Shown piece by piece: positions 38,738 through 56,514 of a stretch of DNA of 64,000 nucleotides. The stretch's first letter is position 1. The number at the start of each line of letters is the position of its first letter. The position numbers and the translations under genes are program-made. The stretch lies in the NCBI GenBank assembly GCA_039545335.1, contig BCIN01000003.1:62001-126000 (forward strand), written 5' to 3'. The stretch comes from Kondoa subrosea. Taxonomy: Eukaryota. The notes under the pieces were generated by a model, which saw nothing but the letters and a program-made list of their open reading frames with translations, did not search any database and was not told where the DNA came from.

Positions 38738-39308
38738 AGCTCTGAAAGGATGTCATTGTATTATACTTGACACGAGTACATACGTGTTGTTGACCATTGT
38801 CAGAAGCTCATTCTTGCACATGCATCCCACGTAGAACAGCAGTAAATTGTAAGACCATGCTTCTTAACTCTTGAGAACGAGTATATATACCACTGAACTC
38901 CATTCCACTGTGCTACCTATGACTTTGTGAAGCGCCAAACTTGTTCAAGACAATCGCTTGCTGTCAAGAGTACAAGTTGCCTTACTTGAGCAGACGAAAC
39001 TGTGTCACTGCAGTGGGCAACGCGAGATTCGGGATCCAGGAAACTGTCTGCAAGTCTCGCCAGGCTACAAGCACCAGCACAAGACCAAGCAAGCGGGTGA
39101 CCTAATTACTTTTACGCAAATAGCATAAAACCAAGACAAAACTCTCCTCCGAGCTTTATTACTCAATCCCGCGCTCTGCTGCCAACCTCTTGAAAGCTGT
39201 GTTCTGGCTGTGAAGGCTACGATAGTAGCCAATAGCGAAGACATCGGCTGCCTGTGTTCTCTCACCTGAAGCAGTGCTCAAAGCGCTGTGCTTCCATTTC
39301 AAAAAGCA

Positions 39309-42300
39309 ATGCAGCAATACCCTACTTCATCCACAGCCTCTGGCAATGGCTTCTCTTACGATCCATCAAGGAAACCTCCAGCTCGTGGTCTTTCTCTGCT
39401 GGAAGACTGGCAACCAATTGCTGCAGAAGCTTTCGACGAAACGCCAGACTACGCTAGCAACATAGATCTAGACATTTCTGACTATCCTCCGGCATCCACT
39501 TACTCTCAAGCGCTCTTTCATCAGTCGATCGCAGCCTATCAACAACAGCAGCAGCAATTTCAACCCAATTCAGCTTTCCCTTTGAATCAGCAAACTCAGC
39601 CGGATCCCGCGCTAGGAGTTAACCTTTCGAGCCATACTACCGTGCGTAATTCAGACTCTCATCCTACTTCTTGCGCATCAGGTAGTCTACCATTCTTACT
39701 CAACATCACGTCAAATTCCAGCAATTCTGATCTGTATTCAATGATAGGCCCTCCTTCTACCTCATATCTTGACTTCCTCAACCATTCAAACTCCTCACAA
39801 CCTCATCTTCAGCAAGATCAAGCTCGAAATCCCTTTGCTCCGATCACTCCAGCTGACGCCAACAATCAGAATCCTTCCTCTAGCTTTGATCCTGATCTCT
39901 ATCTAAAGCAGCCGACCGAAGGCAACAATCTAGAGCAAGATCTAGTCAACCAGTGGGCTTTCTTGAGTAACGGACAAGTCAATCAGCAACAGCAACTTGA
40001 CCCAATCAATCGAAGCTATACTCCTTCTTATCATTCTCAATCCGATACTGGGTCTGCTTACGGAGACGCTCAAGCACCTCAATTCAACAGACTATCTCAT
40101 CCTGAAGCTTGGAGAGCAAGTAAGTCTAGCATTTTTTTGCCCTTTGTAATCTCGAAAGAAATGGTCTTCTGATTGCTTTCGCTCTGCCTCTTTTTAGCCT
40201 TCGGCCAAGAACTGATCGACTCTTTATCTGCTTATTCTGGATCATCTCGACCTCCTTCTGTTGCTGAATCCTCTTTCTTCGATACGCCTGATCTTCGAAG
40301 TCGAGAGTTGCCAGAAGCAGACATCCAAGATATTGATCATCAATTGTCTATGTTTGCTCCTTTAGGCGATCATAGCAATTACAACAACATTAATATCAAC
40401 GGCAACAACTTTTCTAAACCTATTCCTCTTCGAGCTGATAGTTTAATGGCTCTGCAAAGGAATTTTCAAGAGAAGGAAACCAGTCCATCAAGAGAAGCGA
40501 CTCTCCAAGCACCAATCATGGAAGATAAAACTCATCATGGTCCTTCTCTTCTAGGCAACACAGTCTTTGAATCGCCTGCTAATTCAGAAGAAGCTACTTC
40601 AGAGCACGATGAAGAGCTTCCTACAGCTAAACCTAAAGTTCAGAAACAATCTTCTTTGTTGGCAAAGTTGAATATCCCTGTTTCTGGTCCTTTGGCTCCG
40701 GCTGGTCATGGAGAAACTAGTCCGATGACAGGTGGAACGACTGCTGGACCTCGAACAGCTAAAGCGGGAGGTCGTAATGTTATTGAGCAAATGATTGCGG
40801 AAGCTGAGAAGGCTAGGAAGGTTCGTTCTTTCTTTTCCCCTTTGTTCGAGTATTTTTGAGCTGATCTTGGGTTGAACTTACAGGAACAAGCTGCTGCTGT
40901 TGAAGCTAAATCTCAAGCTGGCCTTTCATCATCTTCACAAATCCCTCAGCATTTTCCTGGTATCTTACCTATCAATCCTACAATCAATGACATCCAGAAT
41001 GATTTCCGTCGTCCACCTCAACGTCAACGCTCTCATTCCGAAGCAGATATTTCATTGCTCCAGCAACAACCACAGAACATGCATCATGATTGGAATCAAG
41101 TCCGTATGCCCGTTCGATTGCCCAGCTTTAGCGAATTAGGAGCAAGCATCGATCCGCATAACATCAACGTGAATGTTATGCAAACCTCTCCGGTACCCTC
41201 TCCTTCAATCTCATTCCTGCGTAAATCTAGTCAAGATGATGAGATGGAATCGCCTTATTCGTTACAAGATAGCATGCGTGATAGCTTGATTGGTCCTCGT
41301 CGACGATCTGCTGCTTCAGCTACGGGAAGACCTCAGTGGCCTTATGATGAACCGGACAGATCCTACAACCTAGGTCCGCGAGCCCATAGTGAAGAACAAC
41401 AGCATCAGCAACAACAACAGTTTAACCATCAAATGCACCAAAGTGTCTTTCCCAACTTTGATCCTCACAATATGCCTTACGGTATGGATGGAGCTCCACG
41501 ACTGTTGCCCGGTACTTTCTTGCCTCCACATATGATGCCTCAAACAGCTGCACCCGAACAACCACCATCTTTCGATTTCTCTACTCCAATGTTTTCTGAC
41601 CAACCTTTTCCTTACCCTTACAACTCAATGCAAATGCCTCCTCAACCTTCTTCTTCAGGTAGAGCAAGTCCAACTCATTCTAGTAGATCAAGTAAAGCTA
41701 GCGATGGTGCTGAAGTTATGGATAATCCTGCTCATTGGGAATCTCAAACTACTAAAGCTACTAAAATGGCTGCTGAAGCGAGAAGGAAACCAGGAACGGA
41801 TGCGAAGTTTAAGTGCGAGTATTGTGGAGAAACGTGAGTGTTCACTTTTATTTTCAAGGCCGAATGGTAGTTGACTCTTATAAACAGCTTCACTCGAGCG
41901 TACAACCTTAAGGGTCATTTGCGCGCGCACGTGAGGAGCCTCCTCAGTTCCAACTTCTGTTCGCTCATGTTTACGCTTCTTGACTGCCATAGAACGGGAT
42001 AAAGCGTAAGTTGTTTCCGTCAATGAGCTCGAGAGCTTCTCTGACAGTATTTGCCACAGCTTTCGTTTGCAATGAAGCTGGCTGCGATAAAGCTTTCGCT
42101 CGTGCACATGATTTGAAGCGTCATCGTAAGCTTATCATGATTTTCAGAAGTATACCTTACATGTTTCGCAGAAACACTGCACACGACGGTCAGCAAGTAT
42201 AAGTGTTTGGCTTGCGAGAGGTCATTCAAGCGACTCGATGCGTTGCAGCGACACCATCGAAGGTATTTCCATTTTCTATTTTGTCTGTCTGCTTCCTCTC

Positions 42301-48587: not shown

Positions 48588-50608
<2,021 letters not shown>

Positions 50609-50915
50609 GTAGTAAAGAGAAGAGATAAGGAGAATATTGGAATAGGAAGAAAACGGAAAAAAAGTAAGAGCACGGAGGAAAGACAAAATCATTGCATTCA
50701 CTGTTATCGTTCCTTCCTTTTCGCTCTGCGGCTCTCTGCAGTCTGCTCTTTCGATCTGTTGTTTTCCGAGCGCGCATTCACCGATCCCTGAAATCTGCTA
50801 ACTCGGGCTTTTCTTATTTTCTTCCTTGCGCATTCAGTAAGCCTTGCAATACGTATGAGCAAGTGTGAGAATATGCAATATGCAGAATGCGATGCGACAA
50901 TAGGTATACAAGCAT

Positions 50916-52855: not shown

Positions 52856-55533
52856 ATGGCTTCCCTTGCTGATACTACCTTGATGGCTACGGCTGAATCG
52901 CAAACAAAGCGAATGTACAATGACCAAGATCTCGCTTCAGCCCACTTGAAAGAGAAGCGAACCAATTCCGATACTTCTGTACAGCAAGTTGATGGTCACC
53001 ATGGCTCTGACTATCCTTCTGAATCACAGCGAGCTTCCCTGCGAAGAATTCCTGGTAAGCTCTCCCTCATCCTAAATTTTCGCAATCTTCCCCGCTTATT
53101 TCTCCCAAATTTTCATAGGTACTATCAACTATGTCATTCTTACAGTGGCTTTCATTGAAGTCAGTCTCTCCACCAGTATGGCTAGATTATGCGCTTAATC
53201 TTCCTTTCTTCTTTCTCAGTTCGCCGAACGATTTTCATACTATGGTGCAACTGTCGTCTTCACCAATTTCATCCAGCAACCCCTTCCAGAAGGCAGCACG
53301 ACTGGTTCAATCAAGGGACTCCCAGGTGTTGAACTAGTGTAAGTTTTTCCTTGAAGGTCCACTTTCTTCTCATGCTTATCTGATCTGTTTTTAGACCTGG
53401 TGCTCTTGGCAAAGGTCAAAGGGCAGCTTTCGGTATCACCACCTTCAATTCCTTCTGGATCTATGTTACGCCAATCATGGGTGCCATTCTTGCTGAAACC
53501 GTGAGTCTTTCCCGTCTTTTCGTCATCGATTTGCAATCTGAGACATTTGTTCAGTACTGGGGACGATACAGGACTATCTGCTACGCTATCGCTATTGCCA
53601 TTGTTGGACATATCATGCTCATCATTTGCGCTATCCCGAGTGTCATCACAAACATCAATGCTTCTTTCGGACTTCTTAGTTAGTAATTGTTACAAACTTC
53701 ACGAAGGTGCTGAGTGGTGGCTGCAGTCGCTGCTATCATTGTTATGGGCGTTGGAACTGGATGGTTCAAGTCGAACGTCTCTCCCCTTATCGCGGAACAA
53801 ACACCTCACAAAGAACTGGCCTTGCAAACTCTCAAGTCTGGCGAAGTCGTTATTATTGATCCTGCCATGACTGTTTCACGAATTATGATGTACTTCTACC
53901 TTCTTGTCAACGTTGGAGCTCTTTCTGGTCAGATTGGAATGGTGTACGCGGAACAAGACATTGGTTTCTGGTTCTCGTAAGTTCTCTCTATTCTTTCTGT
54001 ATAATATTATCTAAAATGAAACGGTTTTTAGATACATGTTACCCACCATCGTTCTTTGCTTGACTCCTTTCGTGATGTGGTGGGGCAACAAGGTTCGTAG
54101 CGAGCGTCTGGTAATAACATCCGGCTTACATTTTGTTTCTTTAGCGTTACGTCAAGACTCCTCCTTCTGGATCAGTTTTCCTTGACGCCCTCCGTGTCAT
54201 TCGCTATGCACTCAAACCTTGCTACTCTCTCAACCCAGTTACTTTCTTCAAGAATGTCAAGTCTAACGATTTCTGGGAACGCGCTAAGCCATCTAACGCT
54301 GAACGTACTCCTGAAGGCAGACCAAACTGGATGACTTTCGATGATCTCTGGGTATCTCAAGTCCGACGTGGTCTCAAGGCATGCGAAGTCTTCATCCTCA
54401 TTCCCTTCTACTGGATTTGCTACAACCAAATGACTGGTAACTTGACATCTCAAGCCGCTACCAGTTAGTCTTCCGTTTGATGCCGCTCTGATTGACCCTG
54501 AGACGCCCTATAGTGACAAGAAACGGTGTACCAAACGATCTAATCAACAACTTGAACCCTATTTCTTTGGTCATTATGATTCCTATTATGGATCGCGTTG
54601 TCTACCCATTCCTACGCAAGAAGGGCTACAATTTCACTCCTATCAAGAAGATCACCCTTGGCTTCATGTTCGCCTCGCTTTCCATGGTTGTCGCTACTCT
54701 CACCCAACATTTCATTTACGTCGAATCTGCCTGCGGTTCTCAAGCTTCCACCTGTGACACCGTTGCTCCTATCAACGTGTGGGTGCAGACCCCCGCGTGA
54801 GCAGGCAAAATTTTTAGTTGTGTTGATAGCTAACAAAAACTTTTAGTTATGTTCTCATTGGTATTAGCGAAATTGTACGTTTTTCCATGCAGTACACAGA
54901 CTCTTAGCTAACACAGTCCTTTAGTTCACTTCCATCACCGGTCTTGAGTACGCTTTCACCAAGGCACCAGAGAACGTAAGTTTGCAGTCTGTCAGCTGTA
55001 ATGTTCTAGCTGACGTCTTTGTTTGCCAATTCATAGATGCGATCATTCGTTACTTCAATGTGGCTATTCACCAACGCCTTCTCTTCCGCTTTAGGTCAAG
55101 CCTTTGTTCCGTTATCGGAAGATCCTTTATTAGTATGTTTTGTCTCCCTCAGTCTGCTGAAAACATGCTGATTTGTATAATGGGTCTGGAACTATTTGAG
55201 TACTCATCTCCAAAGGCTATATTATCATCTCATAGATTCTACAGGGTGCTTTCGCAGTCATCTCCTTCGTTGCTGGTATTCTCTTTTGGTTCCTATTCAG
55301 AAAACTTGTAAGTACAATTGATCGCCTTAGATCTTCTGCGTATTCACGCATTCTCTCTCAGGACTCTGAAGAACATCAGCTCAACGACATGCGTCGTATC
55401 ACATATGAAAATCATGCACCACACTCAGGTTTGTTTCTTGTTTTGACTCTGCGTATCTATGCTAAATATTTATATAGGCATGGCACCGGCAGAAGCAGGA
55501 GCTGATGTTGGCTACGAAAAGGAAAGATATTAG
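52856..55533 (+). CDS. PTR2: POT/PTR-family di/tripeptide transporter
   Basis: EFAERFSYYG, GTGWFKSNVSP, FYLLVNVGAL, YNQMTGNLTSQA, GVPNDLINNLNP, TGLEYAFTKAP, EDPLLVWNYG (the last needs non-canonical splicing). Confidence 0.96.
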
Positions 55534-55699
55534 TCGTTTCCACCCTTGCATATATAGCATCAAAAAAACAACTGTTTAGTTTACGGGTATACATGTAGTC
55601 GGTTTGGAGATACGAATGTAATGCTTCTTAGCTATTTGAAATCTTTCCCTTGCGGTCGCATCTTTTCCGATTGCCGCTAGTACTCTCTTCACCTCGATA

Positions 55700-56514
55700 A
55701 CAACTATTACATGCATTCATACAAGTTTCGCTTGAATTGTTACAGTCGCCGTCATGAGAGCTCATATCAATCCCAAGCATGATTCTATTGCAACACTGTC
55801 AGCCGAATTGCTATGGCATGCCAAAGTCAGCGAAGACGACCAAACTTGCCTTTGCTAACTTGTCTTTCTCAATGATGAATTTTCCTGATAGCACATTTAG
55901 TTGACACTCACTCTAGCACAGATCTACTCACCCTCTTTGTACCGCTGAGAGTTATGATAAGCTCTCAGCTAGATCATTTGTCAGTCTGCAATCATTTGTT
56001 TGCGCGAGAGTTCTTACATATGTCCTGCCAGGGAAGCAAAGGTAAGCCGAGCAATGCGTATATGTCACTGATACTGACCATCCTATGCGAGTGTTGCAGC
56101 CTTTGCATTTCAAATCGGCTATAGTATGCATTCCCGTTCTGAGACAAAATCAGTATTCCGCTTGAGAATGATGGAAAGTAAGCATACAGGAGAAGCTTGT
56201 TTTCTTCTTTACCGATGTTCACGTTGACCCTACTAGAGCATAAGAATGGGTAAGGGCAACAGAAAATGTGGCTACAAACGCAGATCGAAGCAAGTAAGCG
56301 GGACCATCTCTTCCCGAGAAGGATTTGCTGATCAACTCATCTATGAGAGCTAGATCGCAGCTACAAACTGCACTGCAGACAGAACACGAACGAGAGTAAG
56401 AGAAATGACGCGAAGAAAAGATAACGGGAACGGAACCAGATGAAAGTAGGTTGATCATAGCTTGTCAAGACAGCCAAAGACTGCTCTCCAGGCTCTTGAG
56501 GACTATCAGTCATT
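55700..56514 (-). CDS. Possible small spliced hydrophobic protein (model unresolved)
   Basis: Hydrophobic ORF pieces (YLFFASFLLL; AFVATFSVALTHSYALVG) separated by GTGAAC/GTAAG/GTGAGT-like donors on the minus strand. Confidence 0.3.

Follow-up and report, generated by a model that had tools for sequence, protein, structure and literature searches.

The DNA analysed here (the window) is a stretch of 64,000 nucleotides (nt) from Kondoa subrosea (contig BCIN01000003.1, positions 62,001 to 126,000, forward strand), which carries a gene for a proton-dependent peptide transporter of the PTR2/POT family. Close to the region encoding the last transmembrane helix of this transporter, a 12-nt coding segment (GTC TGG AAC TAT, read as Val-Trp-Asn-Tyr and hereafter VWNY) lies between two intron-like segments, each of which lacks one invariant splice-site base. 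Based on the sequence, on comparison with relatives and on control introns of the same window, the interpretation that we favour, with modest confidence, is that the 12-nt segment is an exon in the course of being lost, the whole 112-nt region between its neighbouring exons now being excised as a single in-frame intron. The features concerned, in window coordinates and all on the forward (+) strand, are the following.

52856..55533, + strand: PTR2/POT proton-dependent peptide transporter gene, from ATG to TAG (tblastn and spliced alignment with homologue P0001)
55037..55132, + strand: exon 12, ending in ...SEDPLL (tblastn, 100% identity to P0001 residues 529-560)
55133..55183, + strand: upstream half-intron, 51 nt, starting with GTATGT and ending in TGG, not YAG (sequence)
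55182, + strand: G in place of the 3' splice site A, second base from the end (-2) of the upstream half-intron (sequence; same in two contigs)
55184..55195, + strand: 12-nt relic or microexon GTC TGG AAC TAT, encoding VWNY (the only GTNTGGAAYTAY match in the window)
55196, + strand: T in place of the 5' splice site G, first base (+1) of the downstream half-intron, which opens with TTGAGT (sequence; same in two contigs)
55196..55244, + strand: downstream half-intron, 49 nt, starting with TTGAGT and ending in CTACAG at 55244, followed by GGT GCT TTC (sequence)
55133..55244, + strand: proposed merged intron, 112 nt, GTATGT...CTCAT...CAG, which would join DPLL to GAFAV in frame (predicted use)
55245..55307, + strand: exon 14, GAFAVISFVAGILFWFLFRKL, body of the last transmembrane helix (tblastn with P0001, gene model)

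The PTR2 gene and the flanks of its 12-nt segment

The exon model of the gene was derived from the sequence, from a tblastn search with P0001, the closest homologue (94% identity to the window protein), and from a custom spliced protein-to-DNA aligner. With the VWNY segment included, this sequence-built model has 16 exons and an open coding sequence of 1875 nt, corresponding to 624 amino acids (aa). The closest homologues of the window protein carry the Pfam domain PF00854, and P0001 matches SLC15A4, SLC15A1, SLC15A2 and bacterial POT chains (with E values down to 7.5e-35). The ExxER motif, which defines the POT family, is present in the window protein as EFAERFSYYG, its residues E81, E84 and R85 being invariant across 40 sequences, and the protein thus combines the PF00854/SLC15 homology with the ExxER motif and the 12-helix MFS fold of POT/PTR2 transporters. 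Outside the flanks of VWNY, the full model contains no stop, no frameshift and no further broken splice site, and the remaining introns of the gene are all of the GT..YAG type (13/13, 48-64 nt long). No second PTR2 copy was found within the 64-kb window.

Exon 12 ends with GAT CCT TTA TTA at 55132, and a GTATGT donor begins at 55133. The upstream half-intron that it opens contains a branch-like GCTGAT at 55167-55172, 12 nt before its end, and terminates in ...TATAATGG at 55183, so that, when compared with a U2-type GT-AG intron, it has the GT and lacks the AG. The opposite is found in the downstream half-intron, which starts with neither GT nor GC and ends in AG, with a branch-like CTCAT at 55229-55233 (the A being at 55232) 12 nt before 55244. 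One base in each case (the G at 55182 in the first, the T at 55196 in the second) is what sets the two half-introns apart from the ordinary introns of the gene. An earlier interpretation, made from the sequence alone (the sequence-only reading), had described the same arrangement (GTATGT at 55133, an ATAATGG end at 55183, VWNY at 55184-55195, TTGAGT at 55196 and a final CTACAG), and all of these bases and coordinates match the sequence.

The similarity of the 12-nt segment to the corresponding part of other PTR2 genes is not due to chance, since GTNTGGAAYTAY occurs once on both strands of the window, against 0.11 occurrences expected (100 shuffles), and the chance of finding it within the 112-nt gap is, by our own arithmetic, about 1e-4. 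Positions 54800-55600 contain no member of an Rfam family, and the RNA structure predicted over 55113-55264 is not unusual (z 0.32).

Sequence support, conservation and selection

One explanation for two unusual splice-site bases would be an artefact: a sequencing or assembly error, or a mutation confined to the culture, would then conceal a true gene with AG and GT at these two places. Positions 54700-55700 were compared with contigs independently built from two read sets, and the 1001 bases turned out to be identical in both (0 differences and 0 gaps), the two matching contigs having word depths of 144.2 and 52.9. The genomic support at 55182 and 55196, whose importance the sequence-only reading had pointed out, is therefore there, both contigs having G at the first position and T at the second. 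Some room for an artefact is left by the origin of the data, given that both read sets belong to the same sample, from which the assembly itself probably derives, with no independent individual among them, and that contigs drop rare variants. Nevertheless, the contigs were produced by a different assembly pipeline and, because those of both read sets match the window exactly, an assembler error at 55182 or 55196 is very unlikely; it is also very unlikely that two substitution errors would fall 14 nt apart and both on invariant splice bases. Overall, we regard an artefact as barely credible.

The conservation of VWNY among relatives is extensive. Four homologues (P0001, P0121, P0122 and P0126), which are 92-94% identical to the window protein and can be considered transcript-derived because they come from contigs of about 2 kb, all read SEDPLLVWNYGAF (DPLLVWNYGAF) at this position. 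Among the full-length homologues, DPLLVWNY is the commonest reading (46/82) and the looser pattern DPxxxWxx fits 75/82, the seven exceptions including P0004 (a W-to-I variant), four agaric-type sequences in which the Trp is kept in another motif, and P0051, whose C-terminus is aberrant. Additionally, DPLLVWNYG is present in all 16 short genomic or partial open reading frames (ORFs) that were examined, out of 34 found. The statement of the sequence-only reading that fungal Ptr2 proteins typically have DPLLVWNYG at this place is thus borne out, both by the full-length homologues and by the transcripts of the relatives. In length (12 nt) and in encoded residues, which are the same in P0001, P0121, P0122 and the 46 homologues, the segment is what would be expected of a microexon of this gene. 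The 90% cluster around P0001 (7 members) has no member identical to the window protein and none without VWNY, and the transcript contigs that were retrieved come from other species. No genomic copy from a close relative was present among the 6 loci of a metagenome scan, in which L001 is a transcript contig of the relative, and scans of genome contigs and of viral contigs returned 0 relatives.

Several homologues differ in their organization around this site. P0090 (annotated as PTR2, from Colletotrichum spaethianum, and predicted from the genome), the last of the seven exceptions, has a gap of about 12 residues here, with DPLL followed directly by LLGGVGFW; this gap may be an annotation slip of the kind that the present locus would provoke. 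P0123 is a genomic ORF from a 28.7-kb contig of a close relative. It encodes the residues of exons 10-12 without a break, introns 9-11 being absent, and its DPLL is followed by GKLT and a stop, which resembles a G and then GTAAGC; this points to a donor displaced by a single base, or to another arrangement at the site studied here. P0132 (80 aa, from a 1.4-kb contig, with 81% identity across the C-terminal query) runs from SEDPLLVWNYGAF to the C-terminus without interruption, and thus without a microexon, whereas the residues directly upstream of its SEDPLL are unrelated, possibly reflecting an intron a few codons upstream. Judging from these ORFs, intron positions near this site appear to vary across the clade.

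The comparison with the mRNA of the relative (L001) allows an estimate of the constraint on the gene. The alignment covers 624 codons and has 589 identical residues; the non-synonymous divergence (dN) is 0.044, the synonymous divergence (dS) is 1.01 and the proportion of synonymous differences (pS) is 0.556, corresponding to a dN/dS of about 0.04. These values indicate that the PTR2 gene has been under purifying selection for essentially all the time elapsed since its split from the relative. The VWNY codons themselves show 2 synonymous and 0 non-synonymous differences; if they had been unconstrained along the whole branch, the probability that their approximately 10 non-synonymous sites stayed unchanged would be lower than 0.01 (by our own arithmetic). 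Since the absence of non-synonymous changes is improbable without constraint, the exon either is still in use or has been lost only recently. Counting private residue changes, there are 21 on the window branch and 14 for P0001, so that the former is not obviously accelerated.

The place of VWNY in the protein was examined in an AlphaFold2 model of P0001, obtained with a 40-sequence alignment. The model is all-helical, with a mean predicted local distance difference test (pLDDT) score of 80.7 and a predicted template modelling (pTM) score of 0.78, and has a short loop at residues 556-559 followed by the last transmembrane helix (560-587), in which VWNY (561-564) constitutes the first turn. Its tryptophan, W562, is shared by at least 90% of the 40 aligned sequences. 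According to the model, deletion of VWNY would cost the first turn of helix 12 and a nearly invariant interfacial Trp. Without VWNY, LL plus GAFAVISFVAGILFWFLF still provides a stretch of about 20 hydrophobic residues from EDP to RKLD, with which a membrane span is possible.

Splicing of the 112-nt region

When P0001 is aligned to the DNA with non-canonical intron ends penalised but allowed, the spliced aligner recovers exactly the two segments 55133-55183 and 55196-55244. Restricted to GT/GC..AG introns with a minimum length of 35 nt, it yields zero paths that contain VWNY, in agreement with the sequence-only reading, which had found no GT-AG combination that includes these residues; the aligner then falls back on an exon 12 extended by VCF, using a weak GTCTCC donor at 55142. 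Other ways of placing the junctions were also considered and rejected. When the first junction is moved by one or two nt, the ends become TA..GG or AT..GT, and reading the second segment as AT..AC (55194-55242) creates an in-frame TAG. U12-type introns have an RTATCCTT donor and a TCCTTAAC branch, and the donors found here, GTATGT and TTGAGT, do not conform to a U12-type or AT-AC intron. Using the GT at 55200 as a donor adds 4 nt and shifts the frame, while reading through from exon 12 leads to a TGA stop at 55169-55171. The TAG at 55233-55235 would be an in-frame acceptor, replacing VWNY by ILQ, but it lies 3 nt past the sole branch-like A. Finally, after inspection of all GT and AG dinucleotides in 55133-55244, no stepwise GT..AG splicing was found that rebuilds either site, and a nested or twin intron (stwintron) was rejected because positions 55181-55182 are TG, not AG, and the second segment begins with T, not G.

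Introns outside the affected region serve as controls for what the splicing machinery of this organism ordinarily uses. Besides PTR2, they were taken from a second gene of the window.

48588..50706, + strand: Sec61 alpha gene, 3 kb upstream of PTR2

The well-supported introns of Sec61 alpha are GT..YAG in 8/8 cases. Taken together with the 13 of PTR2, the control introns are all GT..YAG (21/21), with lengths of 47-80 nt and a median of 54, and a GAG acceptor occurs in 0/21, so that they give no sign of relaxed splice-site use. Internal exons of 18 nt (48780-48797) and 23 nt (50438-50460), with GT..YAG introns on both sides, are present in Sec61 alpha, and this genome therefore has microexons with canonical sites.

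Against this background, it is possible to weigh the proposal that both non-canonical sites are used, a GU..GG and a UU..AG intron being removed and the full DPLLVWNYGAF transporter being made. Such use would account for the preservation of the 12-mer, of positions +2 to +6 of the second donor (TGAGT), of both branch motifs at 12 nt and of the lengths of 51 and 49 nt, as well as for the exclusively synonymous differences of VWNY from the relative in a gene whose remainder is under purifying selection. One difficulty is the U at position +1, which, as reportedly found by Parker and Siliciano in 1993, breaks an interaction, needed for exon ligation, of the first intron nucleotide with the last one; a 5' splice site that begins with U is not known to permit splicing. 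Furthermore, two very rare site types beside one exon would mean two independent improbable fixations, in a window where every control intron is canonical. Concerning the acceptor, yeast spliceosomes can use CG, GG and UG acceptors, rarely with functional Prp18 and in an activated manner without it (PMC10711555), and this low-level use of G-ending acceptors without A speaks for the proposal. On the other side, GT-AG ends are given for 98.7% of annotated fungal introns (PMC7072748), and the main text of that survey, like that of a 2026 review, makes no mention of TT-AG or of GT-GG. Taken as a whole, use of both sites seems quite unlikely.

The interpretation that we prefer is that the 112 nt between 55133 and 55244 are excised as a single GT..CAG intron, with VWNY dropped in frame and the exon being lost; we give it somewhat better than an even chance. 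Such a merged intron is present in the sequence, as had been noted from the sequence alone, running from the GTATGT donor to the CAG at 55244. It has the GT donor, a CTNA motif 10-25 nt from its end, a YAG acceptor and a preserved frame, all as expected for a U2-type intron, and it is the only canonical, frame-keeping intron with a consensus-type donor in the region. The CAG at 55244 is the acceptor to be expected, because the GAG form is seen in 0/21 control introns and the TAG lies only 3 nt past the branch A. The sequence-only reading had left two possibilities, use of both non-canonical sites or skipping of the exon by the 112-nt intron as part of its loss. Our results indirectly favour the second and give no support to the first, because the unusual bases are real in the reads, all 21 control introns are canonical, the merged intron is good and in frame, and a U at +1 is not known to permit splicing.

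In the mechanism that we envisage, VWNY would once have been a genuine microexon of this lineage, lying between two ordinary introns of about 50 nt with canonical sites. An A to G substitution at 55182 (AG to GG) and a G to T substitution at 55196 (GT to TT) would then have made the microexon impossible for the spliceosome to define, so that GTATGT at 55133 would pair with the CTCAT branch and the CAG (55229-55244). The transporter would be made without VWNY and otherwise unchanged, and the mRNA would stay open because leaving out 12 of the 112 nt keeps the frame. As to the order of events, a single mutation on its own would lead to a frameshift, through retention of the 49-nt segment or through the GAG at 55198-55200; a first mutation would thus have broken the gene and the second, by letting the outer sites pair, would have brought back an in-frame product. 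A sequence of this kind, break and then rescue, would explain why two hits lie 14 nt apart on invariant splice bases while the rest of the 2.7-kb gene is undamaged. The skipping itself, the order of the mutations and the function of the shortened protein are all inferred.

Several considerations weigh against exon skipping as one merged intron. At 112 nt, this intron would exceed all 21 control introns, whose maximum is 80 nt. No transcript-derived homologue without VWNY was seen, and the genomic ORFs of two relatives (P0123 and P0132) show other intron positions at this site. The intact coding sequence, positions +2 to +6 of the second donor and the first branch motif are equally predicted by continued use of the exon, and this first branch motif may still drive splicing to the GAG at 55200, with a frameshift. 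The ancestral bases at 55182 and 55196 are assumed. Moreover, the lost Trp is nearly invariant among homologous sequences, and the viability of the shortened protein is not assured.

Another explanation is that the gene is a null or decaying allele (a young pseudogene or a loss-of-function variant), whose transcripts would mostly retain intron sequence or be frameshifted before helix 12, with the GAG at 55198-55200 serving as acceptor or the GT at 55200 as donor. Both invariant dinucleotides are indeed altered, the reads concur, and the Trp at stake is almost invariant. In addition, the first branch motif is intact and the first AG after it, at 55199-55200, is 29 nt further on, which would give a 68-nt intron and a shifted frame. 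PTR2 is also dispensable in many fungi. However, the gene is otherwise undamaged, with 624 open codons, 13 intact introns and a dN/dS of about 0.04, and no GAG acceptor is used by the control introns. By our own reasoning, it is also improbable that a chance second hit would fall on the partner site 14 nt away before any other damage occurred in about 2.7 kb, and an allele in decay accounts less well than the merged intron for paired hits in an otherwise pristine gene. We consider this explanation unlikely, although it retains appreciable weight.

If the exon is indeed being skipped as part of a merged intron, the locus would offer a rare and unusually early snapshot of a dying exon, in which the 12-mer, the branch sites and five of the six donor bases are still intact, and would illustrate a concrete two-step route to exon loss, a break followed by rescue through a second hit. 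It would also be a natural experiment on the POT fold, asking whether the first turn of helix 12 and its conserved Trp can be spared. If, on the other hand, VWNY is included, this would be a case of exceptional non-canonical splicing, with a natural constitutive 5' splice site carrying U at +1; a further possible implication is that defective sites on the two sides of a microexon support each other, which current models of splice-site chemistry do not predict. For annotation there is a lesson as well, since at a locus of this kind predictors will lose four conserved residues without any warning or else make up a poor donor (GTCTCC at 55142).

Concerning the surroundings of the gene, the best named relatives of the Sec61 alpha protein are those of the basidiomycetes Tulasnella, Atractiella, Puccinia and Wallemia (83-86% over the query), and the contig totals of the two contig sets are about 19 Mb. 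The organism is accordingly a basidiomycete with a small genome and without closely related annotated proteins. Further upstream, at 39270-41837 on the + strand, three long ORFs of 300, 228 and 325 aa succeed one another in one frame, with a single stop between each and the next and with no Pfam match at E 1e-5; they are probably one large intron-containing gene of an unknown family.

Comparison with known systems

A narrow literature search found no microexon flanked by a GG site on one side and a TT site on the other. Nevertheless, the kind of event proposed here is already known, either as exon loss by intron fusion or as intronization. Intron ends other than GT-AG, GC-AG and AT-AC do occur in annotated fungal genomes, some of them with support from RNA sequencing, and in this the two half-introns resemble them; such ends are, however, a small fraction, many are annotation artefacts, and the TT-AG and GT-GG types are not discussed in the main text of the survey mentioned above.

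Short internal exons, for their part, are frequent in basidiomycete genes: in Coprinopsis cinerea, about 9% of the gene models have one that is no longer than 15 nt (PMC12230235). The VWNY segment is similar in size but differs from the Coprinopsis microexons, whose splice sites are normal and which are backed by long-read transcripts.

Intronization of exonic sequence has been described by Catania and Lynch 2008 (PMC2586383) and, in Cryptococcus, by Roy 2009 (PMC2740785). As in that process, coding bases would here become intronic through changes in splice signals, and an in-frame loss of 12 nt would be tolerable. Intronization is rare in Cryptococcus, a genus of basidiomycete yeasts, according to the title of Roy 2009; ours would be one case, caught while under way, with direction and timing inferred from one genome.

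The closest parallel in outcome is offered by rtnA of Aspergillus and Onygenales, in which an exon and two introns evolved into one intron (Kavalecz et al. 2019, PMC6616335). Both there and in the event proposed for PTR2, a short internal exon and its two flanking introns are removed as one, so that one canonical intron is what remains in the end. The rtnA change proceeded through a nested twin intron with alternative 3' sites, and its intermediates were verified by reverse transcription-polymerase chain reaction (RT-PCR), whereas the PTR2 locus has no nested canonical intron and would have reached a similar end state through point substitutions, one in each of the two splice sites of the exon.

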